This document shows, piece after piece, positions 20,215-34,843 of a DNA stretch of 38,909 bases. Both the position numbers and the translations under genes were made by a program. Origin of the DNA: a virus; IMG/VR virus record IMGVR_UViG_3300038701_001143, positions 1 through 38,909 of that record; one strand, written 5' to 3'. Positions within the stretch are counted from its first letter, which is position 1; every line of letters begins with the position of its first letter. The notes beneath the pieces were generated by a model. The model ran no database searches, was not told the origin of the DNA, and was given only the letters and a program-made list of their open reading frames with translations.

Positions 20215-20218
20215 AATA

Positions 20219-20974: not shown

Positions 20975-22294
20975 TTATGCGTCAGCGTCACGGATAAGCT
21001 TTCCAGAGAACCTGCCTCGAACGCTAGTATTGTTTGCTGATGTACTAGCCTCAATCCAGAAGATAGACTTTTCACCCACCACAAAAGGTTCAGCAGGATT
21101 CAATTCTATGCGGTCACCATTTGAACCAGATAAATCGATGCTATCTCGATAAACCTCAAACCTAGCACCCACTACATCAGAATAAACCCAAGCTTTAAAA
21201 GTTACTTCTGGGGAGCCACCACCAGAAGACTTGATTACATTAAGCTTTAACCATGTCGCTAAAAACTGGTGATTTTGAGGAATGTAAAAAATACATTGTT
21301 GAGTTGTTCCCTGACCTGCCGGCATCTCTGCCATAGTGTTTCCGCTTGTGGTTGCCGTTACTGTAATCGTTCCAACGTTTGAGTCTGCCGAACCAGATGT
21401 AAAAATGGTCATACGATTAACGCCAATAAAACTATTTGATGTTGTGACTGTAGTAGTTCCATTCATGGCAATCACTTCGGTAACCTCATCCCAATTTGAA
21501 TCGACTCCAAAGATTACAGCTTGCCTTACACCTGTTCCGCTTGAGTTTGTATCGTTTACTGAATCTGAAACAATATCAAGAGTCTCGCCCGCTGCTAACT
21601 GTTGATTGAAAGCTGCACCAAATGACGCGATAACCTCGCTTGATGCTGTATCTATGTCTGAATTATAGCCAAATTTGTTCCAAGTTGTATCTCCCTGCCT
21701 TCTGCCCAATGCTACCTCTGTCGTGTAATCTGTTGGCCTTACACTGATAGCATCAAAGTCTTGGGCTAAAGTTGAATCAGTTGGGGCGTTTAAGTCTGAT
21801 TTATCCCCGACAGTCGTTTGCAATCTTAGGAAGGTCTGATCTGATCCAGAGTTGTTATAAAATATAACCCTAAAGTATTGTCTTGTGATTGTAAACCTGT
21901 GCGGCGCTTCTATTTGGCCCGTTCTATAATATCGAGTAAGTGTGCTATCAACATTTGAGCCATCTGGAGAGAATTGAATCTCAAAATATCCGTTTTGATC
22001 TGTTTTGACTGCAACAACGACAGAATCGTATTTTGTTACGTCTTCCCAAGTCCCTGTAAAATTATTACCATTTGTGATGAGCGTTGTGCTACTGTTGTCT
22101 GTTGAAATGTATGTTTGCGCATCTTTAAGCAAACCAGTATCGACTTTTATTGTGTCCAAGACTGTATCAATCTCGGTCAGTTTTGTTTCTACACCCTCAC
22201 GCCATGCAGGTACATCAAACTGACTGCCATCTGATTTGTGCTCAAGTCCTTCGTCTGGGTGTTGAAAGCCTCGATCTGTTGCCGGTCCACTCAT
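20975..22294 (-). CDS. Unknown 439-aa beta-rich protein inside the head-morphogenesis block
   Basis: Long clean ORF with no motif I recognise. Two jelly-roll-like Ser/Thr/Asn-rich halves, e.g. YFEIQFSPDGSNVDSTLTRYY...YFRVIFYNNSGSDQTFLRLQT. Confidence 0.55.
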   Translation of the reverse strand: MSGPATDRGFQHPDEGLEHKSDGSQFDVPAWREGVETKLTEIDTVLDTIKVDTGLLKDAQTYISTDNSSTTLITNGNNFTGTWEDVTKYDSVVVAVKTDQNGYFEIQFSPDGSNVDSTLTRYYRTGQIEAPHRFTITRQYFRVIFYNNSGSDQTFLRLQTTVGDKSDLNAPTDSTLAQDFDAISVRPTDYTTEVALGRRQGDTTWNKFGYNSDIDTASSEVIASFGAAFNQQLAAGETLDIVSDSVNDTNSSGTGVRQAVIFGVDSNWDEVTEVIAMNGTTTVTTSNSFIGVNRMTIFTSGSADSNVGTITVTATTSGNTMAEMPAGQGTTQQCIFYIPQNHQFLATWLKLNVIKSSGGGSPEVTFKAWVYSDVVGARFEVYRDSIDLSGSNGDRIELNPAEPFVVGEKSIFWIEASTSANNTSVRGRFSGKLIRDADA

Positions 22295-22295
22295 G

Positions 22296-23069
22296 TTAAT
22301 CCTTCAGGTAAATCGCTTTGCATCTACAGTTTACTCGCTGACCTGCACTCAATCCCCTATAGCGTGGATATGGTGCGCGCTCTGTTCTCTTACCTCTCAA
22401 GATAAAATTCTTATTAATGTCAACAGTTTGACCCTCCGCATGTTGGTGAGGATCTCTCACCTTGCTATCTCTAGCAGTCACCCACACTTTGCGCGTTGCT
22501 TTCTCTAAAGTCTTTCTGGATAGCTTGTCTCGACCCTCTGCCGTGACGCTGCCGATCTCCACTTCACTAATGACTTGAGCGCGACGGCTATTTGTGCCGA
22601 TCTTCTTTTTCAGTTTCTTTTCGATTTCTGCGTCGGTCAATTCATTCTTTCGCCCGCTTTCAATCACTCGGCTCATTTGTCTTTTAGTGCTGTCGCTGAT
22701 TTGTTTAGCTGCCCTCTCTGCTTGCTTTTTAAAGTTGCGTTCAAGTTCGCGCCTGACCTGTGCCACCTTCTTTTTGTCATCGGGGTAAAGGTCTTTTAAA
22801 AGCTTCTCACTCTTTTTGATGGTGTTGCTGTAAACCTTTTCAATGGTTTCTTGCAGTTTGAATTGACCGCCATCGATAACCATGTCAGCGTTTGGCTGTC
22901 CACCAATGCGAAGAGCTTGGATTGCATCTTTTCCGATAATGTTTAGTTCTCGTCTTATCTTCGGCATGGCTGAACGTTCAAGTCGTTTCTCAAGGGCATC
23001 GATTTGACTTATTTCCCTGAGTTGTCGCCTTCTACTCCTCGCCTGTTGTCTCTTCGCCATCGTCGTCAT
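22296..23069 (-). CDS. Minor head protein, SPP1 gp7 / Mu F-like
   Basis: C-terminal VWVTARDSKVRDPHQHAEGQTVDINKNF...PRYRGLSAGQRVNCRCKAIY matches the gp7/MuF signature. Follows the portal gene. Confidence 0.65.
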   Translation of the reverse strand: MTTMAKRQQARSRRRQLREISQIDALEKRLERSAMPKIRRELNIIGKDAIQALRIGGQPNADMVIDGGQFKLQETIEKVYSNTIKKSEKLLKDLYPDDKKKVAQVRRELERNFKKQAERAAKQISDSTKRQMSRVIESGRKNELTDAEIEKKLKKKIGTNSRRAQVISEVEIGSVTAEGRDKLSRKTLEKATRKVWVTARDSKVRDPHQHAEGQTVDINKNFILRGKRTERAPYPRYRGLSAGQRVNCRCKAIYLKD

Positions 23070-24309
23070 CCTCGTCTATCTCTTCCTCATCCATATCGCT
23101 GAATGTTTCATCCAGTGGTATGTCATTCGGCTGAACAAATACTTGATCGGCCTCTTCACTATCGATTGGCTCAAATCCAAGTATCGCGCGCTTTTCATTA
23201 ATCGTTAAAACATCAGAGCTAACTAATTCTGCTCTCTTCTCGCGCCTCAATGGCTCAAGTGCGGGTATGTCGTCTTCACAATAAACAATCTCTACATTTT
23301 CCCCAAAATCAGGAGTAAGCCATCTATTCAGCTCGGAAACGTAAAGGTCTAAAAGAGGCATGATGGTCTGAACAAAGAAAGCAACCTTAGCCTCTTCATA
23401 ATTCGCGTAAGTTTGTGACCCTTCAATACTGATTAACTGAGTAGGAACACCAAAGGCAGAGCATATCTCTTGGGCGTTTAACTTCAGCCCCTCTAACCAA
23501 TCCATGTCTTGAGGCGTCATTGAGATGGTGTCGATCTTTGACGCTGACCCCATGTATTTCACCTTTCTCGCATTTTCTGGACCTTCCCATTTTTCCTTAA
23601 TGTCCTGCAGGATAGTTTTTTCTTGGTCTCCTGTTGGTGGCGTGTCTGAAGTCACCACCAAAGAATAAGACCCAGAGTTTTGTAATGCGCTATAATTCCA
23701 CAATCTAGCAGCGTTCGAACTATCAACACAAGAGGCCGCCGCTTTCAATGGAGCTTGGCCAAATTCAGCACCAGTCGCAGAAGGGTTAAATGTTCGCCAT
23801 TGCATCAAATCGCTTTTGCCTGTGAACTGGTCTACTTCAAAAATGCGCTCGTATCTTTGGTTTTTTCCATAGATGTATCTCAATGGCACCATGTTGCCGA
23901 CAAGCCTATCAATCGAAAACTCGTATGGTTGCCAGTGAATCAACTCGCTAGGTAATCCTGAAGCTTTTAATTTCTGCTGAAAGTTGTTACCAGTTATCAT
24001 AAGCCAACTGCACGCAGCCTGTCTGTATTCAACTCCGCCCTCATCTGGGTTTGGTTGATCGATAAGCTTTTGCAATGGGTGTTCTGTTAAATGCTCCGGC
24101 TTGTCTCCCTTCGTCATAACCTTCAAAGGAACACGAGCAAAACTCTTTGAGATCAGGTCGATACATGCAAATACTGTTGGGTTTAGGCCATACCCTTCAT
24201 CTGCATACGCCTTTAAATTATCAGTTGGAAAAGCGTGTTTCTGTGTCAGAATTTGCGTACTTACCGAGGTCTTGACGCTTTTCGGGCGATTAAATGGCCA
24301 AATATTCAT
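23032..24309 (-). CDS. Portal protein (HK97-type, Phage_portal)
   Basis: LNPTVFACIDLISKSFARVPLKV...LIDQPNP...MITGNNF...RLWNYSALQNSG...DMDWLEGLKLNAQEICSAFGVPTQLI. Acidic C-terminus. Confidence 0.85.
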   Translation of the reverse strand: MNIWPFNRPKSVKTSVSTQILTQKHAFPTDNLKAYADEGYGLNPTVFACIDLISKSFARVPLKVMTKGDKPEHLTEHPLQKLIDQPNPDEGGVEYRQAACSWLMITGNNFQQKLKASGLPSELIHWQPYEFSIDRLVGNMVPLRYIYGKNQRYERIFEVDQFTGKSDLMQWRTFNPSATGAEFGQAPLKAAASCVDSSNAARLWNYSALQNSGSYSLVVTSDTPPTGDQEKTILQDIKEKWEGPENARKVKYMGSASKIDTISMTPQDMDWLEGLKLNAQEICSAFGVPTQLISIEGSQTYANYEEAKVAFFVQTIMPLLDLYVSELNRWLTPDFGENVEIVYCEDDIPALEPLRREKRAELVSSDVLTINEKRAILGFEPIDSEEADQVFVQPNDIPLDETFSDMDEEEIDEDDDDGEETTGEE

Positions 24310-24338
24310 TCATTTTTTTCTTGTGAACGTTCTATCTA

Positions 24339-24366
24339 ATTTTATGAACGTGCGATTATTTGGGAA
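24339..24366 (-). promoter_or_regulatory. Possible late promoter upstream of portal (-35 TTCCCA, 16 nt, -10 TAAAAT) flanked by ACGTTCA direct repeats
   Basis: Minus strand reads TTCCCAaataatcgcACGTTCATAAAATtagatagaACGTTCA. The repeats lie at 24324-24330 and 24345-24351, 21 bp apart. Confidence 0.3.
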
Positions 24367-24432
24367 GCTTGATACAAATTAGGACAACTTGTTCATAAGT
24401 TGAGTAAAAACGTATCACGCGAAAAATGGCCT

Positions 24433-24469
24433 ATAAAAAAAGATCCAATCACTAGCAGCAATTAGATCT
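24433..24469 (-). terminator. Intrinsic terminator (9-bp stem, 11-nt loop, T7 tract)
   Basis: Minus strand reads AGATCTAAT-tgctgctagtg-ATTGGATCT followed by TTTTTTTA. Confidence 0.55.
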
Positions 24470-24542
24470 CTTATTCTCAGTTTTGGTCGGCCGAGAATAA
24501 GATTTTAAGTTGAGTCTGGTTTTATCAAGTTATTTTAGCGCA

Positions 24543-24570
24543 TAAAAAAAAGGCCGGTTTTGCCCGACCT
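24543..24570 (-). terminator. Intrinsic terminator (7-bp GC-rich stem, T8 tract)
   Basis: Minus strand reads AGGTCGG-gcaaaa-CCGGCCT followed by TTTTTTTT, about 55 nt after the stop of the repeat-protein gene. Confidence 0.7.
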
Positions 24571-24624
24571 TAAACGCGCTGTTAGTATTTAGAGCCCCCA
24601 CGCGCAGGGCTTAACTATAAAATA

Positions 24625-24918
24625 TCAGCCATCGCCATCGCCATAGCCATCGCCATAGCCAGAACCATAGCCATCGCCATAGCCATCGCCATCGCCATAG
24701 CCAGAGCCATAGCCAGTGCCATAGCCATAGCCATAGCCATAGCCATAGCCAGAGCCAGAGCCATAGCCATCGCCATAGCCAGAGCCATAGCCAGAGCCAG
24801 AGCCAGAGCCATAGCCATCGCCATAGCCAGAGCCAGAGCCATAGCCAGAGCCAGAGCCATAGCCATTATCTTCTAAAGAATTTAACTCTGATGCATTCAA
24901 AACATATCGACTACTCAT
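24625..24918 (-). CDS. (X-Gly)40 Gly/Tyr/Ser/Asp repeat protein, 97 aa, unknown function
   Basis: The ATG at 24918 overlaps the upstream TAG (ATGAGTAG). Product is MSSRYVLNASELNSLED followed by 40 strict X-G dipeptides (18 Y, 12 S, 8 D, 1 N, 1 T). The track ORF extends to 24990. Confidence 0.55.
   Translation of the reverse strand: MSSRYVLNASELNSLEDNGYGSGSGYGSGSGYGDGYGSGSGSGYGSGYGDGYGSGSGYGYGYGYGYGTGYGSGYGDGDGYGDGYGSGYGDGYGDGDG
24628..24867. repeat. 240-bp hexanucleotide tandem repeat (GCCATA/GCCAGA/GCCATC units on the plus strand)
   Basis: 40 consecutive 6-nt units read directly. This keeps both the Gly-X frame and an Ala/Met/Leu frame open on the minus strand. Confidence 0.95.
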
Positions 24919-25285
24919 TATCCTGAGCCTCAACTGACCTAATAGACTTAGCTGCCTTTTTCGTACATACCAAAATTCCGCAAGCCTCAAGCATCACAGC
25001 ATCTTGACTCATTTCACAAGAAAACTTACAATCCTCTGCATTCCTTACGCCATATTCAGCCATGTCAGTCAAAACAAATCTAGAGTCATAGCGCCAAATC
25101 TGCCTAGCTTTTTTTAATGTCACAGTCTGTCCGCTAAATGAATGTAGGTAACCACTCATCACGCCTTGATTTCTACTTCTAACAATGACATATTTCAGCC
25201 CGTCTAGCTCATCAGGCTCACTACAAGCCGCGTCTTCTCGGATGTATTTCACATCGTCGATCATTAATGTTTCTGGTTTACTCAT
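24911..25285 (-). CDS. Hypothetical protein (terminase-adjacent family, possibly DUF6948-like)
   Basis: 124 aa. YVIVRSRNQGVMSGYLHSFSGQTVTLKKARQIWRYDS pattern that I recall next to terminases. Confidence 0.5.
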   Translation of the reverse strand: MSKPETLMIDDVKYIREDAACSEPDELDGLKYVIVRSRNQGVMSGYLHSFSGQTVTLKKARQIWRYDSRFVLTDMAEYGVRNAEDCKFSCEMSQDAVMLEACGILVCTKKAAKSIRSVEAQDNE

Positions 25286-25342
25286 TATTTCTCCTTGTTA
25301 AAACAGTATATTATTGTGCTCTTTTGGTGTGCAAGAATTAAT

Positions 25343-26626
25343 TTACGCGAAAAACAACGGCTTACCTTTCGGAAAAGCTAACTCAGTCAATCCATAAACT
25401 AAAGCGTCTAATCTATCGGGTGATTTCTGCTTGGGGTCACCTGTGAAATTGCACATTTGATATTCAAGGTCTTTAAAATTCCCAACATGATGCACCCGCC
25501 CATCTTCATACAATGAGCTAACCGGCTCGGCTCTCGTCATCTTTCCCTTTTTTGCCACAACACTATCAACCGGAGCATTTGGCAGAATCGTCTTGATTGT
25601 TAACTCCACAAGCTTATGACCCTGATTCACTTCAGCCACAATCTTATCGGCCTGATATTCATTGTAACAACCCACAATCGTCTTGGCCCATTCTAACGGG
25701 CTTAAATGGTCGCTTGCATCCTTGAGCACATAAAAGTGATTATCGAACCCTTCAGCCACAACCACAATTCCACACTCATCATTCTTTGCTTCACCTTCTG
25801 ACACTGACGGATCAACCGCAACGACGACGCGCCTTATCTCTGGCAATGAAAGCACTCGATAAGGTGATATCATTGTGTCCATTTTCCAAAGAGCGTTTTC
25901 GTTCTGGCTTGTCGGCAAACCCAGATAAATATGGTCGTATCTCGCGGGGTTTGCTGCTTTGACTCGCTCGGCCTTTTCTATGAATGAGGGGTGAAGGTTA
26001 TCAATGTTGTCTAGGTACGTTGTGTAGATGTAGAGCACATCGTCTTTTATTCCGTTAAAGGTTATATCAACGCCGGCATCTTGAAAGAATCGCTTATACA
26101 CGAAAGCGTCAATACTCGTAGGATTCCAAAGGAGAATATCGCGCAAATCCTTACCCTTTGTTCTGACTGAGTTTGATATTTTATCATAGGTTGATTCGTG
26201 CATCTCTGTGCCATCATCCGGCAACTCTTCACTTTCCTCTAACAAAAATGTGGTCAGACCATTGATTGATTTAAGACTTGCCGTTTGTATTCCGCTAGAT
26301 GTTTTAAGTCCAATAAAAAACATTTCTGATTGAGATTGTTTATTTAAATAAGTGTTATCAACAAGCTCAAAATCATCATACATCAACCAGTCACCAAATG
26401 GAGAGCTTGACATTTCCAACTTTTCAGAGAACTCTGGAATAATACTTTTTCTCGCGCTCGCCATCGTGTAGCGTGTGTTCGCTATTTTGTGCCCTGCTTG
26501 ATAACTTAAATCTCTCAGAAATGTTTGGGCTGCAAATGACTTACCAGAACCACGACCACCGGAAAGAATTGCAACTCTATATTCTTCACCCCATAAAGGC
26601 TTATATTTACTGCTTATCTTCATCAC
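25343..26626 (-). CDS. terL: Terminase large subunit (PBSX/Terminase_3 type)
   Basis: Walker A AILSGGRGSGKSF, Walker B-like FLLEESEE, and a C-terminal nuclease region VVVAVDPS...DECGIVVV...DRLDALVY. Confidence 0.9.
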   Translation of the reverse strand: MMKISSKYKPLWGEEYRVAILSGGRGSGKSFAAQTFLRDLSYQAGHKIANTRYTMASARKSIIPEFSEKLEMSSSPFGDWLMYDDFELVDNTYLNKQSQSEMFFIGLKTSSGIQTASLKSINGLTTFLLEESEELPDDGTEMHESTYDKISNSVRTKGKDLRDILLWNPTSIDAFVYKRFFQDAGVDITFNGIKDDVLYIYTTYLDNIDNLHPSFIEKAERVKAANPARYDHIYLGLPTSQNENALWKMDTMISPYRVLSLPEIRRVVVAVDPSVSEGEAKNDECGIVVVAEGFDNHFYVLKDASDHLSPLEWAKTIVGCYNEYQADKIVAEVNQGHKLVELTIKTILPNAPVDSVVAKKGKMTRAEPVSSLYEDGRVHHVGNFKDLEYQMCNFTGDPKQKSPDRLDALVYGLTELAFPKGKPLFFA

Positions 26627-26993
26627 TTATAAACTGATGAGGGGCGATAGATTTTATCTTGTCGCCTTTAGTGGTATGGTCAACTTCCTGCTTTTCACTG
26701 TACCCATGTTTCGCCAACATCAGCTTAGCAATCGACGCATTAAACTCGCCCATAATCCCGCCATTAACCAAAACCTTCTCCTGCATGGCACAAATTTGTG
26801 CTACGATGTCAGAAAAATCCTTTTTTGTATCGTCCTTAATCCAGTCATAAATCGTCTCTCTACTGATCCCCAAAAACACCGCAAGCCCCGCCACTTGGGG
26901 AAAAACGTCACCTTCAGACTCATAGTTGTGAAGGTAGTCATGAGCCTTTCGAATCAGCTCCTCGTTGTATTTTGTTGGTCGTCCTGTTCTCAT
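26607..26993 (-). CDS. terS: Terminase small subunit
   Basis: MRTGRPTKYNEELIRKA...VAGLAVFLGISRETIYDWIKDD...KLMLAKHGYSEKQ is a typical HTH TerS. Confidence 0.8.
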   Translation of the reverse strand: MRTGRPTKYNEELIRKAHDYLHNYESEGDVFPQVAGLAVFLGISRETIYDWIKDDTKKDFSDIVAQICAMQEKVLVNGGIMGEFNASIAKLMLAKHGYSEKQEVDHTTKGDKIKSIAPHQFISDEDKQ

Positions 26994-27358
26994 TCGTCTA
27001 TTCTATCACAATCTGTACTAAAACAATCATTTAATGAAAATGTACGAATCGGTTTTCTCTTAGATAGCGCATAAATCAACTCTTTTCTAACTCCGCTAGA
27101 CTCATCAACTCCATCAATATCAAGTATCCATAATTCGTCACACATATCAATCATGGCATAATCAATATTTTCCCATGTATCAAAACTCAATCCCATATCA
27201 TGCTTATTTGCGACTGGATGGGACTGAGCTATTGGCGATATGGGGCAGAACCCCATACCGATCAATTTTGAGCACCCGTCTAGGGCTAACTGGTACCTAG
27301 TTTCCATGACTGTCTTATCTGAATGGGTGTAAGGGCTAGCCATATATATAGTTTTCAT
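26990..27358 (-). CDS. DUF1937 / nucleoside 2-deoxyribosyltransferase-like fold protein
   Basis: IYMASPYTHSD...GFCPISPIAQSH...WENIDYAMIDMCDELWILDIDGVDESSGVRKELIYA pattern. TAATG and ATGA coupling to both neighbours. Confidence 0.5.
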   Translation of the reverse strand: MKTIYMASPYTHSDKTVMETRYQLALDGCSKLIGMGFCPISPIAQSHPVANKHDMGLSFDTWENIDYAMIDMCDELWILDIDGVDESSGVRKELIYALSKRKPIRTFSLNDCFSTDCDRIDE

Positions 27359-29733
27359 TACATAACTCCCATAATTTCAAATAAATCATCATGTTTGTCA
27401 TTTTGATTAATCTCAATAATATTTTTATTTTCAACTGGCTTTTTCTTCAATTTATTCGATTCAGTTTTATCATAAATTGGATCATCGCAAGGCCATAGCC
27501 TTTTCACATCACCGCTTGCTTCTTTTAGGTGCTCGTGAGCTGCATTGAAATAACTTGGCTTTAATTCACTTCCTTTAAATTTCCTACCCATTTCAAGAGA
27601 GACAACCCCCTCTGACCCAATGCCAGTAAATGGACTCAGTATAGTGTCATTCGGCAACGTCCACAATTCCAAGCATCTCTCTATCAAATCTAACTGAAGA
27701 GGGCAAATATGCCTTTCGTCTCTATCATCTCTTGCATGCTTAAAATTAAGAGTGTTTGACTGCCTTATGTTTTGCCATGTTGGTTGTGCTAAATTCTGCC
27801 ATCGGTCAACTGGGAATTGCTCTGGAGTATGAGACACAGGCTTTTTGTTAATTCCATCCTTTCTAAACGTCATTAGATAATCTGGTATACCTTGTCTATT
27901 CATAGCGCTATCCTTTTTTATCTGCTTCCATAATAGACCTAGAGCTTTGGTTCTTTGCATAGCCACTACTGGGCATTTCCATATAGTCACCTCTGACGCA
28001 TATATAAATCCATGTGACTGCATCATTTTGATTATTTCCCCCCTAAAGTCCCTAATGCCTATGAATCCATGCCTAGCTTTGGAAGTCGGCAAATTCATGC
28101 AATGAATTGATACTAGCCTACCTTCAGCCATTACTCTATAAAGCTCTTTTAGCATGAAGTCAAAATGTGTATAAAATTCGTTCTCAGATCTAGAATTTCC
28201 CATATCTCTATCATCATCAGAGTAAGTATATAGTGATGCGAAAGGTGGACTAAATATAGTGTAATCAATTGAGTTACTTTCTAAAGATGATACATAATCT
28301 ACACAATCACCATTATAAATTTCAAAATTATTATCTTTTTCAACTCTGCCGTTGCTTCTTGAGTCAATATTTAATTTTCTATCTTTCAATCCACCAGACT
28401 GAAAGCATCTCATGTGATCAATAATATTATCATACATAGACTTCATTTTATCATCTTTCACATTTATATTTTCAAGAACTGCTTCCTCAATATCGGCAGT
28501 GATAATATTTGCTGTGACTGATCTTTTTTGACCAAATCTATAACATCTTCTAACAGCTTGATAAAGCTGTTCATAAGAGTCATTTAAACCTACAAAAATC
28601 ATATTCGCGCATTGCTGCCAGTTCATGCCAAATCCCGCTATCTTTGGCTTAGTAATCAATATAGAATACTTACCAGAAGTAAATCCTAACAATCCATCCT
28701 TTTTGACACTATCCTTTTGTTGGCCAGATACCTCTACAACATCACTATATTTTTCACTTATGGCCTTGTGAATCATAGAACTCTCATCATTTAAATGACA
28801 CCAAATAAGTATGGGCTCATCTTCGCTATTAGATCTTATGTTATCAACTATATCTAGGCATCTATTAACTCTCTTTTCTATAGTATCTCGTCTAGCCCTA
28901 TTTCTACCAAGCAAACCCATTCCATTTTTTTCTAAATAGTCATTAATATCTAGTCCAGAATCAACTACATGATTTTTATAATTTAACTCTGGTAATTCAA
29001 AGTCGTTTTCAGGATGCCCAATATCCGATGGCCTTCTAAATATAACTGCCCAACTAGATACCCATGCCCAAAAATCCTCTTCACTATGTTTTTTAAGTCT
29101 CCATTTAGCACTCTCTTTGACATCATTTATAAAAAAAGTCGCCCACATTGACTCCTGAGACATGACCCCTAAAAATTCAGATTGACTTCCGAACTCCATA
29201 TAGTCATTTGGCGCAGGCGTAGCAGTCAAAGATAACCTATAATTAATATGGCTTATTTTTTCCATTACCATCATTCTGGTCTTGCTATCGCGGTGTTTAA
29301 GTATGCTCGATTCATCAAGAACTATCCCTGAAAACTCAGAAAAATCAATATTTTTTATCTGCTCATAATTCGTAACATAAACCCCATCTAAATTATCACA
29401 ATCTGAATCATAACGTTTAACATTAAGATTAAGCACTTCATTTGCTTCTCTCTGTGTTTGTTCAGCAATGCACAAAGGAGCCAATATAAGAACAGGCTTA
29501 CATGTCTCTATTCTTACGCGCTCTGCCCATTCGCATTGCATGATAGTCTTGCCCAATCCAGTATCTGCGAAAATCGCAGCTCTACCCTTTTTTAAAGCCC
29601 ATATAACAACATCTTTTTGATACCCAAATAATGATTCATGAACATTATCAACATTGAATCCAATGTCTTCCTGCACAACTCTCTTAGATTCTATAAAATC
29701 TCTGTATTCTGTGTTTAACATGTATCTCTCCAT
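27358..29733 (-). CDS. SNF2/SF2 helicase fused to a beta-class N4/N6 DNA methyltransferase
   Basis: Helicase motifs ADTGLGKT (aa 56-63), VLDESS (138-143), LTATPAPN, QAVRRCYRFGQ (392-402). MTase motifs SPPF (495-498), HICPLQ, LSPFTGIGSEG (699-709). The likely start is M5 at 29721 (GGAGAG 4 nt upstream). Confidence 0.8.
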   Translation of the reverse strand: MERYMLNTEYRDFIESKRVVQEDIGFNVDNVHESLFGYQKDVVIWALKKGRAAIFADTGLGKTIMQCEWAERVRIETCKPVLILAPLCIAEQTQREANEVLNLNVKRYDSDCDNLDGVYVTNYEQIKNIDFSEFSGIVLDESSILKHRDSKTRMMVMEKISHINYRLSLTATPAPNDYMEFGSQSEFLGVMSQESMWATFFINDVKESAKWRLKKHSEEDFWAWVSSWAVIFRRPSDIGHPENDFELPELNYKNHVVDSGLDINDYLEKNGMGLLGRNRARRDTIEKRVNRCLDIVDNIRSNSEDEPILIWCHLNDESSMIHKAISEKYSDVVEVSGQQKDSVKKDGLLGFTSGKYSILITKPKIAGFGMNWQQCANMIFVGLNDSYEQLYQAVRRCYRFGQKRSVTANIITADIEEAVLENINVKDDKMKSMYDNIIDHMRCFQSGGLKDRKLNIDSRSNGRVEKDNNFEIYNGDCVDYVSSLESNSIDYTIFSPPFASLYTYSDDDRDMGNSRSENEFYTHFDFMLKELYRVMAEGRLVSIHCMNLPTSKARHGFIGIRDFRGEIIKMMQSHGFIYASEVTIWKCPVVAMQRTKALGLLWKQIKKDSAMNRQGIPDYLMTFRKDGINKKPVSHTPEQFPVDRWQNLAQPTWQNIRQSNTLNFKHARDDRDERHICPLQLDLIERCLELWTLPNDTILSPFTGIGSEGVVSLEMGRKFKGSELKPSYFNAAHEHLKEASGDVKRLWPCDDPIYDKTESNKLKKKPVENKNIIEINQNDKHDDLFEIMGVM

Positions 29734-29747
29734 TCATGTTTAAAAAA

Positions 29748-29777
29748 AATATATTACAGTCAATCAAGCTCAATCAA
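29748..29777 (-). promoter_or_regulatory. Putative promoter for the helicase-MTase/terminase operon, with tandem CTTGATTGA repeats
   Basis: Minus strand reads cCTTGATTGAgCTTGATTGActgTAATATATT. -35 TTGATT pairs with -10 TAATAT (15 nt) or TATATT (18 nt). Confidence 0.35.
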
Positions 29778-29803
29778 GGGTTATTTTTAAAATATTTTAA
29801 AAA

Positions 29804-29884
29804 TCAATCACTAATCCACAATACCCCAAACATAAACCCAAAAACGCCGCCCATGATAACAGCGTACTCGTAGAATCCATACAT
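29804..29884 (-). CDS. Mini membrane peptide (26 aa)
   Basis: MYGFYEYAVIMGGVFGFMFGVLWISD. TAATG overlap with the preceding mini-ORF. Confidence 0.3.
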   Translation of the reverse strand: MYGFYEYAVIMGGVFGFMFGVLWISD

Positions 29885-29952
29885 TATTCTAATCCACGAG
29901 CTAAAAATATCAAAGCGACCGCTAGCATCAAGTTGACCAAAGCTAATATCAT
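29884..29952 (-). CDS. Mini membrane peptide (22 aa)
   Basis: MILALVNLMLAVALIFLARGLE. ATGA overlap with the stop of 29949..30131. Confidence 0.3.
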   Translation of the reverse strand: MILALVNLMLAVALIFLARGLE

Positions 29953-30131
29953 TTCAAATCCTTAACAGCATCCCTATAGCCATTTCTAAACCCCACCTTA
30001 TACCCATTAACCCTAACCACCTCCAGAGACAAATACAGCCAATTTGGCATCGTTTCAAGCGTCGCCTCGTCATGATAGCAAGATATTTGATTTAAAAGCC
30101 AGTCAATTTGCTCTTTGTTTAGTTCGCTCAT
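29949..30131 (-). CDS. Hypothetical protein
   Basis: 60-aa ORF in the coupled chain. Confidence 0.5.
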   Translation of the reverse strand: MSELNKEQIDWLLNQISCYHDEATLETMPNWLYLSLEVVRVNGYKVGFRNGYRDAVKDLK

Positions 30132-30298
30132 TTCAAAACCCTTATCCCTTCACTACTCTTATCCGCTTCAAACTCATTCGACCAAACATTAAGCAATTCT
30201 TGAATCATAGCGCAGCCCTCGCACTCTTCCGAATGCCCCTCGCTAATCTCGTCAATGGTGCCGATTAATTCCGCTAATTCGTCAAGTCTGTCTTTCAT
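30128..30298 (-). CDS. Hypothetical acidic protein (56 aa)
   Basis: Below the track cutoff. MKDRLDELAELIGTIDEISEGHSEECEGCAMIQELLNVWSNEFEADKSSEGIRVLK. AAGGAAGG SD upstream and ATGA overlap downstream. Confidence 0.5.
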   Translation of the reverse strand: MKDRLDELAELIGTIDEISEGHSEECEGCAMIQELLNVWSNEFEADKSSEGIRVLK

Positions 30299-30301
30299 AT
30301 C

Positions 30302-30454
30302 TCAACCTTCCTTTTTAGGATCAACAGATAAACCAATCCATAGTAACACCAAACTGGCAGCAAAAAGTGTATCTGGATCTTTTCCCATATATATACTTGC
30401 CATATATAAAAGGTAGCAGCAAGCCGATCCTACCCATAAAGTTCCTCTATTCAT
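30302..30454 (-). CDS. Small membrane protein (50 aa, two hydrophobic segments)
   Basis: MNRGTLWVGSACCYLLYMASIYMGKDPDTLFAASLVLLWIGLSVDPKKEG. ATGA overlap with the Lar-like gene. Confidence 0.4.
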   Translation of the reverse strand: MNRGTLWVGSACCYLLYMASIYMGKDPDTLFAASLVLLWIGLSVDPKKEG

Positions 30455-30627
30455 CTCTCCCTATTCCAACTCTTCCAAGCCTCTATCTCATTCGCTTCAA
30501 GTGGACCAGTAGCACCACAATCATCACAAATGACAGAGAAGTGGAAATTAATAAATCCTGCGTCATTTACAAACAGCTTAGTGGATGAACAAAAGGGGCA
30601 AGGTTTTCTTTCATTTTTTACCACCAC
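30451..30627 (-). CDS. Lar-family-like Zn-ribbon protein (restriction-alleviation family), GTG/TTG start
   Basis: ...KPCPFCSSTKLFVNDAGFINFHFSVICDDCGATGPLEANEIEAWKSWNRER matches CPFCG...C..CGA.GP....A...WN.R. There is no in-frame ATG; candidates are GTG at 30627 or 30624, or TTG at 30630. Confidence 0.5.
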   Translation of the reverse strand: MVVKNERKPCPFCSSTKLFVNDAGFINFHFSVICDDCGATGPLEANEIEAWKSWNRER

Positions 30628-30773
30628 CAACCTTTATAACGTCCATAAGTATCAACCGGATCTTCTCCGTTTTTCAATTCCTGCTTGAGCTTTGCCCGCT
30701 CCTCCTTGTGCTTCATTTTCTTCAAAAGCTTGGATGTTTGCGGGCCATCATGCTTGTCTAATTGCTCAGCCAA
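30618..30773 (-). CDS. Possible small basic protein ending in WWW (TTG start, or the ATG at 30714 giving 31 aa)
   Basis: Open frame LAEQLDKHDGPQTSKLLKKMKHKEERAKLKQELKNGEDPVDTYGRYKGWWW directly after the upstream TAA. Confidence 0.3.
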   Translation of the reverse strand: MAEQLDKHDGPQTSKLLKKMKHKEERAKLKQELKNGEDPVDTYGRYKGWWW

Positions 30774-31100
30774 TTAACCCCTATCTCCAACAACAACAAT
30801 CGACCTAAACAGCTCGTCGTGTTCTTCGCATAATATCAACTGGACTAAGCTTCCAAGCTTCCAATCGATTGATTTAATATGCTTAATAAACTCATCAAGA
30901 TTTAAATTCTTGTAAGCGCCACAGTAAAGATTAGCCTGAAGGTACTTGTCTCCACCATACCAACAACAATCATCAACATCATCAAAGCTAGCTAAACCAA
31001 TTTTACTGCAACTGAAGTATTCATTTATTTCGACAATCTTCTCATCTTCGTCATGCTCCACCGAGTTCATATTCAACATTAAACTTGTTACATTACTCAA
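30774..31100 (-). CDS. Hypothetical protein
   Basis: 108-aa acidic, Cys-containing ORF. ATGA overlap with the metallophosphoesterase stop. Confidence 0.55.
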   Translation of the reverse strand: MSNVTSLMLNMNSVEHDEDEKIVEINEYFSCSKIGLASFDDVDDCCWYGGDKYLQANLYCGAYKNLNLDEFIKHIKSIDWKLGSLVQLILCEEHDELFRSIVVVGDRG

Positions 31101-32470
31101 ACCTGAACCTCAAAACCCAACCTTTTAGAATATCCCTTCTCGTCCCATTTTGCCTGCCAAAGCTTACCATCAAGCAAAACTTTCCCTTGCTCGATATGGT
31201 GAAGATTGACATTAAAAAGCCCGTCACCCTCTTCATAAGCCACAGTAGAAAACCCCTGCTGCCAGTTCTGCCTAGTTCCGGCTTGAGGCACAAAATCACC
31301 CAATCGGCAAATCGTACCACAAGAAAACGCGCTGTTTGTCATCGGTTCACCCTTCTTATAAGTCGTTTTTGTGGCCTGTTCACACCTATGAATGTGACCA
31401 ACCATGCGCGAAACATGTGGGTCTTTTTGAATTATTCCCCCAACAGTGCCCCCACTTTTGCTGTTTGCTGTGTCACCATGAGAAAAGGCGAGATGGTCAT
31501 TTAAATAAAACTCATCTTGTGGATAGTTCTTGAAGTATTTCACCCCAATATCATCAAGGCCCAAGAAATACTCAAGTGAATAAGTGTACGGCGCTGACTC
31601 TTCAAAGTCCACCTTCCTAAGCCTCGACCCTTCAACATTAACCTCTTCCATGAAGTTCTTGAACCTCGCCTCATGATTCCCATAAATATAAACCATTTCC
31701 GGCGTATGGGCTCTCAAGTCATCAATAAACATTCTCAAAGTCTGAAGCGATGGCTGTACAGTGAAAAGCATTTCTGGGCTTTTAGCATATCGGCCAAAGT
31801 TTGGCAAATCAAGCATATCCCCGAGCATGATAATAACGTCAGGTTTAATCTCTGCCGCTATCTGAACAAGCAAATCCATCGCCCTAAAATCGTGATACGG
31901 CTGGAGAACGTTTTTATGTACGTCTATTCGATTATATCCAATCTGTGAATCAGGTACAACCAAGGCACGTTTGAGTTTTTTTCGCGATTTAGATACTTTT
32001 TTTATCGGTGCGCGATAATCCGGCCTGATTGCTTTGATCTCTGGGAACTTGCAAACCTGCGGAACTCTGGGCTTTGCCTCAATACGAACCTGAGCGTTTT
32101 GCTTTTCAGGTGGCCCCCATTTTCCAACTCGAAACCTTTCGATGATAATATCATCCTTATCAATCCCAAACTCTTTGAGCGTATCATCAACCGCTTTTTG
32201 TTTGTTCGTGGTGTCGATGATTGCGAGATTGTTGTCGCTTTGAATAAGCTCTGAAGTGTCCAAGCTTTTATCTCGGTTCTTCTCCATGACAATTATTCTA
32301 TCAAGCAGCTTTTTAGCATCCGCAGCATTCAGCTTGTAATGATCCATCAAAGCAGTCTTTCGACCTCCATTGGGACCATGTGGCAACTCACTGATGAATA
32401 GTAAAGCTTCTCGCGTTGATATTTTATTTTTCAAAGTACTAGCCTTGTTGTTGGAAGTCATTGAAAGCAT
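31097..32470 (-). CDS. Calcineurin-like metallophosphoesterase with a roughly 170-aa N-terminal extension
   Basis: Ordered motifs VVPDSQ (DxQ in place of DxH), LGDMLD, GNHEARF, SHGD, GHIHR. Confidence 0.65.
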   Translation of the reverse strand: MLSMTSNNKASTLKNKISTREALLFISELPHGPNGGRKTALMDHYKLNAADAKKLLDRIIVMEKNRDKSLDTSELIQSDNNLAIIDTTNKQKAVDDTLKEFGIDKDDIIIERFRVGKWGPPEKQNAQVRIEAKPRVPQVCKFPEIKAIRPDYRAPIKKVSKSRKKLKRALVVPDSQIGYNRIDVHKNVLQPYHDFRAMDLLVQIAAEIKPDVIIMLGDMLDLPNFGRYAKSPEMLFTVQPSLQTLRMFIDDLRAHTPEMVYIYGNHEARFKNFMEEVNVEGSRLRKVDFEESAPYTYSLEYFLGLDDIGVKYFKNYPQDEFYLNDHLAFSHGDTANSKSGGTVGGIIQKDPHVSRMVGHIHRCEQATKTTYKKGEPMTNSAFSCGTICRLGDFVPQAGTRQNWQQGFSTVAYEEGDGLFNVNLHHIEQGKVLLDGKLWQAKWDEKGYSKRLGFEVQV

Positions 32471-32792
32471 TGCCTGATTCTATCTTTCGCTTGCTTTCTC
32501 TTGCTAAATTAGTGTAGTTCTGCTCATCATCATAGTTGTCTTCGTGAAAAACACCTTTATTCACTGACCTTATTGCTTTCATCAAGACCATCATTTGTTG
32601 CGCTACATCTGCCGGAATGTCTGGGATGTGAATATTGAAATGCTGTGATAGTATAGCCCCCCAGGATCGCCCTATATTATTCCAGTTTGGCAGTGGGTCG
32701 CCATAGGTTTTTTGTCTATCTGCCAAAATCTCCTCTGGAGTCTTAATTTGATTGGCATTATAGGCCCCCTCTATATCATCATATTTACTCAT
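32439..32792 (-). CDS. DUF6378-type (MazG-like all-alpha NTP-pyrophosphohydrolase-related) protein
   Basis: ILADRQKTYGDPLPNWNNIGRSWGAIL...IPADVAQQMMVLMKAIRSVNKGVFHEDNYDDEQNYTNLA fits the R...YG...N...iA..w...dv...m..K..R....H.D...D pattern. I prefer the ATG at 32792; the track start is 32855. Confidence 0.45.
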   Translation of the reverse strand: MSKYDDIEGAYNANQIKTPEEILADRQKTYGDPLPNWNNIGRSWGAILSQHFNIHIPDIPADVAQQMMVLMKAIRSVNKGVFHEDNYDDEQNYTNLARESKRKIESGNAFNDFQQQG

Positions 32793-32808
32793 TAAATCCC
32801 CTAAAATG

Positions 32809-32955
32809 TTATTTCCAAAACTGCCACCATTTCTTTTTGGTAGCTTTCGATTCAAGTTTGTTCAATCTCAAGTCACGGCGACACATTGGGCAACCATGCT
32901 TCAAGTCAAATATTATGTCATGTCTTTCGCAGTATTTTTGCCTGTACGGATTCAT
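32809..32955 (-). CDS. Small Zn-binding protein (48 aa)
   Basis: MNPYRQKYCERHDIIFDLKHGCPMCRRD.... The ATG at 32955 forms an ATGA overlap with the upstream 54-aa ORF. The track start is 33018. Confidence 0.45.
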   Translation of the reverse strand: MNPYRQKYCERHDIIFDLKHGCPMCRRDLRLNKLESKATKKKWWQFWK

Positions 32956-33116
32956 CTTTGTTCCGTTATCTTTATAGTCGTGACGCTTTCCTCTTCCTGC
33001 ATATCCTGACCAACCCAAGTCAAATGAGTTTCAATACTTACTTTGACTGGATCGCCATTATTCAACTGATTAATGACATTTAAAAGAATCTCAATCGTGT
33101 CTTCTTGTTTACTCAT
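32952..33116 (-). CDS. Hypothetical acidic protein (54 aa)
   Basis: Below the track cutoff. GGAGAG lies 3 nt before the ATG at 33116. MSKQEDTIEILLNVINQLNNGDPVKVSIETHLTWVGQDMQEEESVTTIKITEQR. Confidence 0.5.
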   Translation of the reverse strand: MSKQEDTIEILLNVINQLNNGDPVKVSIETHLTWVGQDMQEEESVTTIKITEQR

Positions 33117-33139
33117 AATCTCTCCAAATTATAAAAACA

Positions 33140-33198
33140 GGGGCGCTAGATCGCTAAAAGTGCAATTTGCATAGTTCGATTGTGGTCGATCGCGCCCC
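33140..33198 (-). promoter_or_regulatory. Long-range hairpin followed by a T-tract in the leader of the 33116 operon (attenuator or terminator-like)
   Basis: Minus strand reads GGGGCGCGATCG...(31 nt, containing the TGCAAATTGCA palindrome)...CGATCTAGCGCCCC followed by TGTTTTTAT. Confidence 0.35.
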
Positions 33199-33233
33199 AT
33201 CCCTTGAGTATAATGCCAACGCCAACTTTGCCA

Positions 33234-33267
33234 CATAAAAAAAGGGATCTAACCGAAGCTAGACCCC
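33234..33267 (-). terminator. Strong intrinsic terminator (10-bp stem, UUCG tetraloop, T7 tract)
   Basis: Minus strand reads GGGGTCTAGC-TTCG-GTTAGATCCC followed by TTTTTTTAT. Confidence 0.75.
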
Positions 33268-33480
33268 CTAGGAGAGATAACTTAATCATTATACTCGTTA
33301 AACAATTATGCAAAACACTGAGCGGCAAAGGCTCCAACAAATTTGTTTCTTGTCGTGCATTCTCAGCAAATGCGATTGCCTTTGGTACTAGAGTGTTGCC
33401 GTCCACACCTTAAGCATGTTCGCTTTTTATACTTCTCGAAAGGTGTTACTAAACTAAAAAAATACTCCTCATCCATCGTG

Positions 33481-33963
33481 TTATCTCCTAAAATGAATTT
33501 TATAATCCCCGCTACCGTGCTCAATTTCAATACAAACCTCGGTCGCGTTGGTATCTCGTTTTGATATATTCTTAATAAATTCTTTAAATTGATCGCCTGT
33601 AAACTTAATGTAGGCTTTTCTATTTCTTGTCTTGTAGTCCTCTAATTCTTTCCTCATCACTTCAATTTCGCCTATCTTCTGGTTTCTCTTGAATGTTTGA
33701 TCAATCCGTCTCTTAAGCTTCTCTGCATCGCTCAAGGGCTCCACCATATCCCGAAACTTATTCTTTGCCTCTTCAAATTCCTTTGAGTCTGGATCATTAT
33801 AAATCAAGCCCATGCAGGTGCGCCCAAGTGTTGCGCACTCCGCATTCAATCCCTTGACCCAATCATTGAAGTGGCCCATGACGTAAGCGACGGCTTTATC
33901 CTTATCGATATAACCATGCCCAAACTCTTCAAGGGCCAACTCTACATGGTGTTTAATCTTCAA
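33481..33963 (-). CDS. Hypothetical protein
   Basis: 160-aa ORF whose first codon is TTG (track). The next in-frame ATG is at codon 29. Confidence 0.5.
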   Translation of the reverse strand: MKIKHHVELALEEFGHGYIDKDKAVAYVMGHFNDWVKGLNAECATLGRTCMGLIYNDPDSKEFEEAKNKFRDMVEPLSDAEKLKRRIDQTFKRNQKIGEIEVMRKELEDYKTRNRKAYIKFTGDQFKEFIKNISKRDTNATEVCIEIEHGSGDYKIHFRR

Positions 33964-34081
33964 CGGGCTCCGGCTCTTTTTTATTTTTAGGCTTTGGCAT
34001 CAAGCTTTCAATCGCTTCAGCGGCTAACCTGTGGAGCTTGTCGCCGTTTTTTAACTGTGGTAGTAATTTTTCTATTTGCAT
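33953..34081 (-). CDS. Hypothetical small protein (42 aa)
   Basis: Below the track cutoff. GAGGA lies 5 nt before the ATG at 34081. MQIEKLLPQLKNGDKLHRLAAEAIESLMPKPKNKKEPEPVED. Confidence 0.45.
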   Translation of the reverse strand: MQIEKLLPQLKNGDKLHRLAAEAIESLMPKPKNKKEPEPVED

Positions 34082-34089
34082 TTTATTCC

Positions 34090-34473
34090 TCAGAATGGCA
34101 TTGAATCTTGATCGTCATTATCTGTAGGCGTAGCTCTCTGGCTAGTTTCTGGCGCAGCTTCACTATTCCCGCCCCTCACAAACTCAATCTCACTCACGCG
34201 AACATCTGGACTGATTTGCTCAACTCCGTCTTTGTTTGTGAACTTCTTCAAAGACAACTGACCTATAACAAAAATCTGTTGCCCTTTCTTTAAATGGTCG
34301 CTCAAGCTCTGCGCTCTCTTGCCCCACATCGTACACCTAAACCAGTTTGTAACCTGTCGGTCTCCAAACCCTACATTATTGGCACAATTAAACTCTAACA
34401 CAGAGTTTTCTCCTACCTGTTTTAATTCTGGGTCTCTTACGATATTACCCAGAAAGTTTATTGAATTGCTCAT
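34090..34473 (-). CDS. ssb: Single-stranded DNA-binding protein
   Basis: OB-fold pattern INFLGNIVRDPELKQVGENSVLEFNCANN...WFRCTMWGKRAQSL...GQQIFVIGQL and the acidic tail DNDDQDSMPF. Confidence 0.9.
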   Translation of the reverse strand: MSNSINFLGNIVRDPELKQVGENSVLEFNCANNVGFGDRQVTNWFRCTMWGKRAQSLSDHLKKGQQIFVIGQLSLKKFTNKDGVEQISPDVRVSEIEFVRGGNSEAAPETSQRATPTDNDDQDSMPF

Positions 34474-34475
34474 TT

Positions 34476-34667
34476 TTAGCCTCTCCTGTTAAAAGCTTTT
34501 ACTGCTAAACCCGATTTCCTTAAACTCGTCTTTTCATGCCGTGGTTCTTCTCGAAGCTGATCGGGTCGCAGCTCAGAAGATGGGAATAGTCTCGCTATCC
34601 AGACAAGCCCCAATGGCGTATGAATAAATTTACCTGCCTCGTTTGGCTTGATTAATATTTGCTTCAT
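34476..34667 (-). CDS. Hypothetical protein
   Basis: 63-aa ORF coupled on both sides. Confidence 0.4.
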   Translation of the reverse strand: MKQILIKPNEAGKFIHTPLGLVWIARLFPSSELRPDQLREEPRHEKTSLRKSGLAVKAFNRRG

Positions 34668-34843
34668 TTTTCAAATTCCTCCACAAACTCAAGTGCACCC
34701 TTTGGGTTATAACCACAAGCGCGAATAAACCTCTCAACAACCTCGAGAACATCATCGAGGTTTTGATGGTTTGAGTCTAGCTCAACAAACTCTTTTATCT
34801 TGTCGTCATCGTATTCATACATAAATTTAAACTTGCTACTCAT
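34664..34843 (-). CDS. Hypothetical acidic protein (59 aa)
   Basis: One codon below the track cutoff. ATGA overlaps at both ends. MSSKFKFMYEYDDDKIKEFVELDSNHQNLDDVLEVVERFIRACGYNPKGALEFVEEFEK. Confidence 0.5.
   Translation of the reverse strand: MSSKFKFMYEYDDDKIKEFVELDSNHQNLDDVLEVVERFIRACGYNPKGALEFVEEFEK

Follow-up and report, generated by a model that had tools for sequence, protein, structure and literature searches.

What does a phage protein do in which an SNF2-type helicase is fused to a DNA methyltransferase, and does its placement upstream of the terminase genes tell when it acts? The question is raised by a locus in the IMG/VR virus record IMGVR_UViG_3300038701_001143, whose 38,909 nucleotides (nt), positions 1 to 38,909, were analyzed at full length and are referred to below as the window. 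The present analysis identifies the product of the gene as a single polypeptide, composed of a SWI2/SNF2-type ATPase that is tethered by a linker to a beta-class DNA methyltransferase. The protein is a divergent member of a very large, already annotated phage and prophage family, and its architecture is not new; the fusion reported in an initial annotation of the locus, made from the sequence alone, is real, although that annotation missed the large family in which it had already been catalogued. What is new is a recurrent link of the helicase-methylase pair to a deoxyribosyltransferase-like gene, which had likewise been missed. The favored reading, to which a probability of about 0.55 is assigned, is that of a methylase carried by a motor and protecting phage DNA from host restriction enzymes.

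Domain Architecture of the Fusion Protein

The helicase-methylase gene is present in the window as the single open reading frame (ORF) originally described, coding for 791 amino acids (aa) in its longest form. All six motifs quoted in the initial annotation were found in the product: GLGKT, DESS, TATP, QAVRRCYRFGQ, SPPF, and SPFTGIGSEG. The true start is probably the second ATG of the ORF, at position 29721, since it is preceded at a distance of 7 nt by a Shine-Dalgarno sequence, GGAGAG (29730–29725), and gene callers assign 787 aa to an identical protein from another sample (P0001). Four Pfam domains match above their curated cut-offs, SNF2-rel_dom, ResIII, and Helicase_C in the ATPase part and N6_N4_Mtase in the methylase part that follows it, and PHROG 16 (“DNA helicase”) spans aa 29–772 with E = 2e-74. 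These profile matches, together with Foldseek, back both halves of the two-domain assignment. Independent contigs that carry single ORFs at 68–100% identity demonstrate that the fusion holds as one gene.

The AlphaFold2 model of the 787-aa protein, built on 60 homologs, comprises two folded modules and a disordered linker, with a mean predicted local distance difference test score (pLDDT) of 81.6 and a predicted template modeling score (pTM) of 0.73. The linker is also the split point of the two-gene relatives, where the helicase ORF ends and the methylase ORF begins.

The N-terminal module contains SNF2-rel_dom at aa 38–206 (33.5 bits against a cut-off of 24.9) and Helicase_C at aa 296–401. 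Helicase motif I (GLGKT) is located at aa 59 (29545–29559), motif II (DESS) at aa 140 (29305–29316), motif III (TATP) at aa 170, and motif VI (QAVRRCYRFGQ) at aa 392 (28528–28560). Conservation was counted over the 120 best metagenome homologs: motif I in the form GxGK[TS] and motif VI are invariant (120/120), and DESS is kept in all of them except one (119/120). When the module was compared with the PDB by Foldseek, it matched Mot1, CSB, Chd1, ISWI, Snf2/Sth1, and Ino80 at E values of about 1e-17. Two RecA-like lobes carrying motifs I, II, III, and VI, combined with the Snf2-type fold, assign the module to the SWI2/SNF2 ATPases of helicase superfamily 2 (SF2). Its predicted activity is translocation along double-stranded DNA.

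The Methyltransferase Module and the Modified Base

The C-terminal module matches N6_N4_Mtase (PF01555) at aa 489–733 (E = 5e-18), and the match covers positions 1–220 of the 221 in the profile. Its motifs follow the order IV...VIII, target-recognition domain, X, I–III. Motif IV (SPPF, aa 495, 28240–28251) lies ahead of motif I, which binds S-adenosylmethionine (FTGIGSEG, 27607–27636; SPFTGIGSEG begins at aa 700 and FxGxG at aa 702). Because motif IV precedes motif I, the methylase belongs to the beta class, and the initial class assignment is borne out.

SPPF is invariant in all 120 homologs and conforms to the S-P-P-[YF] pattern of N4-cytosine methyltransferases. Most bacterial enzymes of this specificity share SPPY, while N6-adenine enzymes have DPPY (PMC8885841); the two tetrapeptides have been compared structurally (PMC10406627), and the motif IV alternatives of the beta class have been listed (PMC2890505). 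The initial annotation had argued that S-P-P-[FY] is more typical of N4-cytosine enzymes, in agreement with this published rule (PMC8885841, PMC10406627). The case is strengthened by the invariance of SPPF, and N4-methylcytosine (m4C) is reasonably likely to be the modified base.

Between motifs VIII and X, where the target-recognition domain is situated, the sequence hardly varies either (e.g., IWKxPVxAMQRTKALGLLWKQIKKDS...RQGIPDY), and this invariance extends from the window phage to a cyanophage and to a virus with Methanosarcinales named as the host in its record. Such conservation suggests that these proteins have one specificity in common, probably short or relaxed. A specificity of this kind would suit a general anti-restriction tool.

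A Large Family in Fused and Split Forms

Similarity to the PHROG 16 helicase/methylase family extends over the full length of the protein. A tblastn search of 50,697 GenBank phage records gave a match in 514 of them; in 283 the match covers at least 80% of the fusion protein, always at less than 60% identity, and none of the GenBank phage records is more than 50% identical to the fusion. Among the full-coverage matches is a Caudoviricetes virus (50% identity) for which the record names Methanosarcinales as the host. The “DNA methylase” gp40 of Synechococcus phage S-CBS3 shows 46% identity. About 85 Flavobacterium phages, about 147 mycobacteriophages, and 27 Arthrobacter phages are also among the phage matches. 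Annotations such as “DNA helicase | DNA methylase,” “DNA methylase N-4,” and “DNA helicase/methylase” appear among the mycobacteriophage and Arthrobacter records listed, and “DNA helicase/methylase” is the existing annotation in Cerasum and Auxilium.

No match to positions 20000–38909 of the window (18.9 kb, gene included) was obtained in a nucleotide search against the GenBank phages, and a close cultured relative is therefore lacking. A scan of 185,579 reference genomes retrieved only relatives at about 43–61% identity (best segment), residing in prophages of Firmicutes, Coriobacteriia, Leptotrichia, and others. Metagenomes contribute at least 8000 proteins that match the fusion. The best 120 have E values of 1e-242 or lower and are nearly all 730–800 aa long, with the same precomputed Pfam architecture in 119 of them. 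When the methylase domain by itself was searched exhaustively with HMMER, representatives of 401 clusters (50% identity) were retrieved at E ≤ 1e-30; of the best 150, 85 include the helicase region as well. An assembly artifact as the origin of the fusion is ruled out by these representatives and by the independent single-ORF contigs.

For a comparison of gene organization, 115 related loci were collected from viral contigs, reference genomes, and metagenomes. Both helicase and methylase are carried by every one of them: as a fused gene in 26 loci, as adjacent ORFs, usually with overlapping ends, in 66, and as two ORFs with one ORF of about 110 codons between them in 23. From a comparative standpoint, this pattern of fused, adjacent, and split forms speaks strongly for a joint action of motor and methylase. 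Further arrangements were observed in individual phages. A homing-endonuclease gene separates the halves in Flavobacterium phage snusmum6-2, Alteromonas phage XX1924 carries them in reverse order with an intervening gene, and some mycobacteriophages have kilobase-scale insertions in the helicase/methylase locus. In Mycobacterium phages Pacc40 (H65; 41158–45069), Tootsieroll, and Clifton the match to the 791-aa query stretches over 3.4–3.9 kb, and the helicase/methylase gene of Pacc40 is annotated as ‘anaerobic ribonucleoside reductase large subunit.’ A span of this size suggests an intein or another large insertion, in which case the annotation would be misleading.

Another group of relatives, consisting of IMG/VR contigs, several of which are numbered like human-microbiome samples (L007–L013, L014, L015, L018, and L019), has helicase and methylase ORFs that share a reading frame, with one TAA between them and an ATG within the next few codons. 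These pairs look like a recent split of a fused gene. Stop-codon recoding was considered for them and rejected, given the ATG soon after the TAA and the fact that TAA is the commonest stop of the long ORFs of these contigs.

A Probable Deoxyribosyltransferase-Like Partner

The DUF1937 gene that follows the fusion encodes a protein with a nucleoside 2-deoxyribosyltransferase-like fold. Its weaker Pfam matches are to DUF7768, DUF4406, and Nuc_deoxyrib_tr, and its sole solved relative is 1T1J, a protein of unknown function. When the DUF1937, terS, and terL proteins of the window were used for single-sequence searches in 80 viral loci, almost none were found. Partners of this fold were therefore sought with a small profile built from the deoxyribosyltransferase-like proteins and by inspection of the ORFs between split halves. 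The inserted ORFs in 23 of the 23 loci with an insert match DUF4406, DUF7768, DUF1937, and Nuc_deoxyrib_tr, the same four families as the window protein. By the profile search, a deoxyribosyltransferase-like gene lies beside or inside the module in 29 of the 115 loci, between the halves in 23 and directly downstream in 6, a frequency of 26% that is rough, as the sample is redundant and many of the 29 loci are near-duplicates. The occurrences represent at least eight sequence types and three arrangements. One further gene of the group was detected 2.6 kb downstream of the pair in locus L023, and none elsewhere in about 1 Mb of loci. In Caudoviricetes sp. vir525, whose fusion is 50% identical to that of the window, a PHROG 355 gene comes after the fusion and overlaps it by 4 nt, and the fusion of the 84% relative (L090) is likewise followed by a DUF1937-type gene.

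The alignment of these partners reveals an invariant Y, P, P and an invariant S-x-G-x3-E signature. The Glu of the latter presumably corresponds in position to the catalytic Glu of nucleoside deoxyribosyltransferases. The partner is missing from about 74% of the loci, including most fused forms and the four fused relatives of about 52% identity that were examined, and no fusion of the deoxyribosyltransferase-like domain to either protein occurs among the 150 representatives. As it is missing from some three quarters of the loci, the partner is optional, and the DUF1937 neighbor is probably an optional third partner of the helicase-methylase pair.

Two relatives at 72–77% identity carry another gene at this place. 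In L083 (12336–12557) and L089 (5095–5310) a DUF7220 protein of 71–73 aa overlaps the 3′ end of the fusion, replacing DUF1937. The downstream slot thus appears to be exchangeable.

Genomic Context, Expression, and Mobility

The window represents a siphovirus-type genome. Upstream of the fusion are genes for a single-stranded DNA-binding protein (SSB), a metallophosphoesterase, and a Lar homolog; on its downstream side the same strand carries those for terminase, portal, head, and tail (Table 1). The start of the DUF1937 gene overlaps the stop of the fusion (TAATG), an ATGA joins its own stop to the start of terS, and terS shares 17–20 nt with terL, which confirms the overlap chain of the initial annotation. 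No terminator-like sites were found by a scan between the fusion, DUF1937, terS, and terL genes. Co-transcription of the fusion with the terminase genes is plausible in the window phage.

TABLE 1. Location of the fusion gene, its modules, and associated features in the window.
Feature	Position	Strand	Description and basis
Helicase-methyltransferase fusion gene	27358..29733	(-)	Single ORF, 791 aa in the longest form; PHROG 16 match
SWI2/SNF2-type ATPase module	28408..29733	(-)	aa 1–442; Pfam, motifs, Foldseek
Disordered linker between modules	28360..28395	(-)	pLDDT <50 at residues 443–454 of the 787-aa model
Beta-class amino-methyltransferase module	27499..28338	(-)	aa ~466–745; Pfam N6_N4_Mtase, TTHA0409 alignment
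DUF1937 gene, nucleoside 2-deoxyribosyltransferase-like fold	26990..27358	(-)	122 aa; Pfam DUF1937 4.8e-17; PHROG 355
Small terminase subunit gene (terS)	26607..26993	(-)	Pfam GP3_package, 1.8e-28
Large terminase subunit gene (terL)	25343..26626	(-)	Pfam Terminase_3, Terminase_6C; PHROGs 979 and 2
Weak sigma-70-like promoter candidate	29748..29777	(-)	TTGATT-18-TATATT, 9/12 match; A/T-rich tract before it
Terminator-like hairpin and T run	29844..29865	(-)	Scan; upstream of the promoter candidate

The promoter candidate is situated in the 215-nt gap upstream of the fusion. The region contains 28 such sites against 20.2 ± 3.6 expected by chance, and the candidate, with a match of only 9/12, is not significant alone. 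The A/T tract and the -35- and -10-like hexamers can, however, be aligned upstream of the homologs in L090 (84%) and L088 (74%), whose neighbors differ; the gene upstream of the homolog is the terminase in L088. The element is not present in L084 (78%), which has a strong hairpin instead. The relatives therefore lend some support to the promoter-like element of the initial annotation. Two other observations concern the same gap. A tandem direct repeat, CTTGATTGA-G-CTTGATTGA (29756–29775, minus strand), overlaps the -35 region of the promoter candidate and could be a binding site for a regulator. A possible ORF of 26 codons (29801–29881, minus strand) would code for a hydrophobic peptide (MYGFYEYAVIMGGVFGFMFGVLWISD) and has the hairpin (29865–29844) inside it.

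Only the window, the identical copy L086, and the 84% relative L090 show the order fusion, DUF1937, terS, terL. In a 78% relative the gene is located 1.3 kb upstream of terS-like and terL genes with intergenic gaps on both sides, in the 74% relative L088 it lies between terL and portal, and in relatives of 72–77% identity it adjoins SSB or YqaJ exonuclease genes or lies 5 kb from terL. At about 52% identity it occurs in early operons just past cro/cI-like genes, or beside genes for a sigma factor, ParB, or DnaB. Replication and recombination genes surround it in S-CBS3, Cerasum, Auxilium, and RR1-A. The neighbors in the early-module relatives include SSB, YqaJ, RecA-like, DnaB, and cro/cI-like helix-turn-helix proteins. 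Judged by gene order, action at packaging time does not seem to be a family property, linkage to the terminase being limited to the closest relatives. The earlier proposal that the protein acts at packaging rather than early is thus not supported as a general one, most relatives keeping the gene in early or replication modules. The terminase-adjacent placement is a local accident of genome organization and does not characterize the family.

At 0.354, the GC content of the fusion gene is below that of every other 2.4-kb stretch of the window (mean 0.414, standard deviation 0.019), and that of the DUF1937 gene is 0.382. Low GC and the varying position among relatives of 72–84% identity fit a mobile, compositionally foreign cassette inserting at module boundaries. 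The promoter-like elements that accompany the gene in relatives are a further part of this cassette behavior.

Several other features of the window were recorded. About 0.7 kb upstream of the fusion, a 59-aa zinc-ribbon protein (30451–30630, minus strand) matches Pfam Lar_restr_allev above the cut-off (E = 2.5e-10); this Lar homolog is a second candidate anti-restriction gene. The metallophosphoesterase of the early region (31097–32470, minus strand) comprises 457 aa and matches PHROG 20266 (E = 1.8e-47) and Pfam Metallophos; in L086 the start of its gene overlaps the preceding DUF6378-like gene. An ORF at 24625–24990 (minus strand), located between the genes for DUF6948 and portal, codes for a long repeat of Gly-Tyr-Gly-Ser/Asp (GYGSGSGYGDGYG...), and an overlapping frame reads MAMALALAMA.... 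Pfam matches of the repeat ORF are sub-threshold and of low complexity only. The ORF either specifies a genuine phage protein of unusual repetitiveness or is repeat DNA that does not code for protein.

Function of the Fusion Protein

In the favored reading, that of a motor-carried methylase protecting from restriction, the protein would probably dimerize through its methylase domain, like the solved beta-class enzymes (PMC7544214, PMC10406627). It would bind the double-stranded phage DNA, and its Snf2-type lobes would hydrolyze ATP to track along it. Carried by the motor over newly made phage DNA, the methylase would modify frequent sites quickly and fully at the N4 position of cytosine, and the replicated DNA would thereby be shielded from host restriction before packaging and on entering the next host. 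In the window phage, the cassette, with its own weak promoter and the DUF1937 companion, would have landed directly upstream of terS and terL. The Lar homolog upstream of the fusion fits an anti-restriction neighborhood.

Several points weigh against this reading. Motif II is DESS and not the canonical Snf2 DExH (DEGH or DEAH), so that it retains the acidic Walker B pair but not the His; to judge from the motifs and the fold, this would mark a distinct subfamily and not a loss of the Snf2 fold. The rule that leads from SPP[FY] to m4C has exceptions, being valid for ‘most’ m4C enzymes. A distant branch from actinophages and a rhizobiophage (L092, L093, and L094, i.e., Cerasum gp63, Auxilium gp73, and RR1-A gene 56) carries SIPF at motif IV and about 70 additional aa in the target-recognition region, and may have a different substrate or specificity. 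Simple methylation leaves the recurring deoxyribosyltransferase-like partner unexplained. In most relatives the gene has recombination or replication genes as its neighbors, and the replication modules of Staphylococcus and Streptococcus phages contain homologous SNF2 helicases that lack a methylase. No experimental work, either biochemical or on methylomes, was found in the literature for the helicase-methylase family.

The neighboring recombination and replication genes and the methylase-free homologs make a role of the motor in these processes possible. The SNF2 module might even be mainly a replication or recombination factor, such as a remodeler of forks or branches or an annealing helicase, with the methylase as a passenger that marks newly replicated DNA. 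Genes for SSB, YqaJ exonuclease, RecA-like recombinase, DnaB, and the Pol III beta subunit adjoin the gene in relatives, and Liberibacter phages can be added to those with methylase-free helicases in their replication modules. The helicase-only homologs are, however, only about 22–24% identical, and within the subfamily the helicase is almost never without an adjoining methylase, as the 115 loci illustrate. Repeated fusion argues for a joint activity, and a mere passenger role of the methylase is improbable. The late function proposed in the initial annotation, according to which the enzyme is produced together with the terminase and marks concatemers processively during packaging or immediately before it, is unlikely as well. 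It would agree with the overlap chain to DUF1937, terS, and terL in the window and L090, uninterrupted by a terminator-like site, with the hairpin and promoter-like site just upstream, which could make the gene the head of a packaging operon, and with the position of the L088 homolog between terL and portal. But the linkage to the terminase is lost at 72–78% identity already, and the more distant relatives examined are all without it, having the gene in early or replication modules, often shortly past cro/cI-like genes. Moreover, a sigma-70-like promoter would fire early unless regulated, and no feature of the sequence ties the protein to terminase or portal.

The deoxyribosyltransferase-like gene opens another route. 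Helicase, methylase, and a DUF1937/DUF4406 protein could form a three-part ATP-driven machine for DNA modification beyond plain methylation. Its chemistry might be an ATP-dependent base exchange, a hypermodification, or the clearing of modified nucleotides from the pool alongside methylation; a processive, near sequence-independent m4C hypermethylation and an N-glycosidic exchange or removal acting on DNA or on the nucleotide pool are further possibilities. The location of the partner between the halves or directly downstream, in several sequence types and arrangements, its invariant S-x-G-x3-E signature, and the finding of only one match of this group away from the module in about 1 Mb speak for such a machine, and the almost invariant region at the target-recognition position would fit methylation that is nearly independent of sequence. 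The partner is nevertheless dispensable for the core function, as most loci lack it, and its domain is fused to neither protein in any of the 150 representatives. Genes of this fold are, besides, common in phage nucleotide-metabolism modules, and the near-duplicates among the 29 loci reduce the weight of the association; the three-part machine is therefore a distinctly doubtful proposal. Least probable is a modification or motor part of a phage-borne restriction-like or superinfection-exclusion system. Type I, Type III, and Type ISP enzymes and DISARM do build on the same combination of motor and methylase, and Type III systems have beta-class methylases as their Mod subunits (PMC7544214). Neither the protein nor the adjoining genes contain a nuclease domain, however; the best 25 of 46 PADLOC matches are to generic methylase models (MTase_II/oMTase) and, in part of their length, to ZorD/DpdE helicase models, and the neighbors are terminase and structural genes.

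Protection of phage DNA by a motor-carried methylase would be relevant well outside the window, because the helicase-methylase family is among the commonest multidomain DNA-modification proteins in phages. Its hosts are actinobacteria, cyanobacteria, Bacteroidota, and Firmicutes, to which the virus with Methanosarcinales named as the host is added. If the motor makes the methylase processive or relaxes its specificity, the protein would be a general anti-restriction device and might also become useful for marking DNA with m4C in an ATP-driven manner. For the window itself, the practical gain is a better annotation. Its fusion is an ordinary member of the family, whose adjacency to the terminase should not be over-interpreted, and only the link to the nucleoside-deoxyribosyltransferase-like gene constitutes a fresh lead.

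Comparison with Known Systems

Homology over the full length exists with proteins of PHROG 16 phages, such as S-CBS3 gp40, Caudoviricetes sp. vir525 gene 7, Cerasum gp63, and Auxilium gp73, at 28–50% identity. They share the order of SNF2-type ATPase and beta-class methylase and the position of the linker, and the closer branch shares SPPF; the gene of the window differs in being chained to DUF1937 and terminase genes. A search against NCBIfam gave only sub-threshold matches for the fusion.

The solved structure closest to the methylase half is TTHA0409, a putative methylase of Thermus thermophilus HB8 (PDB 2ZIE/2ZIF). By sequence, too, TTHA0409 ranks first among solved structures. The two sequences match end to end, including the variable region (E = 8e-15), at 18–19% identity, and the target-normalised TM-score in Foldseek is 0.81. 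TTHA0409 has SPPY at motif IV and forms the dimer of the beta class (PMC7544214), but it is a stand-alone protein of 297 aa that lacks a motor. Neither a target base nor a target sequence is assigned to it in the literature found.

The likeness to P1 DarB, DISARM, and BREX pointed out in the initial annotation is one of theme. DarB also unites an SNF2-related ATPase and a DNA amino-methyltransferase in one phage protein, and its anti-restriction role is proven. It is, however, a protein of 2255 aa with the modules in reverse order, a gamma-class methylase (N6_Mtase/Eco57I, aa 145–290) being followed by SNF2-rel_dom at aa 849–911. It is also packaged into virions, and nothing in the fusion suggests packaging. 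Direct comparison by BLASTP gave a best E value of 0.38, around the Walker A motif only. Membership in the DarB family is rejected on account of this lack of significant similarity, the reverse order, and the other methylase class. DISARM (DrmD with DrmMI/MII) and BREX (PglX) likewise combine an SNF2-type helicase and a methylase in one functional unit, but they are multi-gene host defense systems with other obligatory genes. No such partner genes occur near the fusion, where the neighbors are Lar, DUF1937, terminase, and structural genes, and no Drm or Pgl component is among the best 25 of the 46 PADLOC matches.

Type III restriction-modification systems resemble the fusion in that a beta-class amino-methyltransferase and an SF2 ATPase work on the same DNA. 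Their Res ATPase is of non-Snf2 type and carries a nuclease, and their Mod subunit has DPPY and methylates adenine. Pfam and PHROG searches revealed no nuclease domain in the fusion or the adjoining genes, and for this reason its identification as a restriction system is rejected. A published precedent for the combination of domains was described by Iyer et al. (2017; PMC5512222), who reported that a coupling of SWI2/SNF2 ATPases to DNA methylases, either fused or as neighbors, is widespread in phages and plasmids, and who proposed for this methylase-helicase dyad of polyvalent proteins a translocation along DNA with methylation that protects against restriction.

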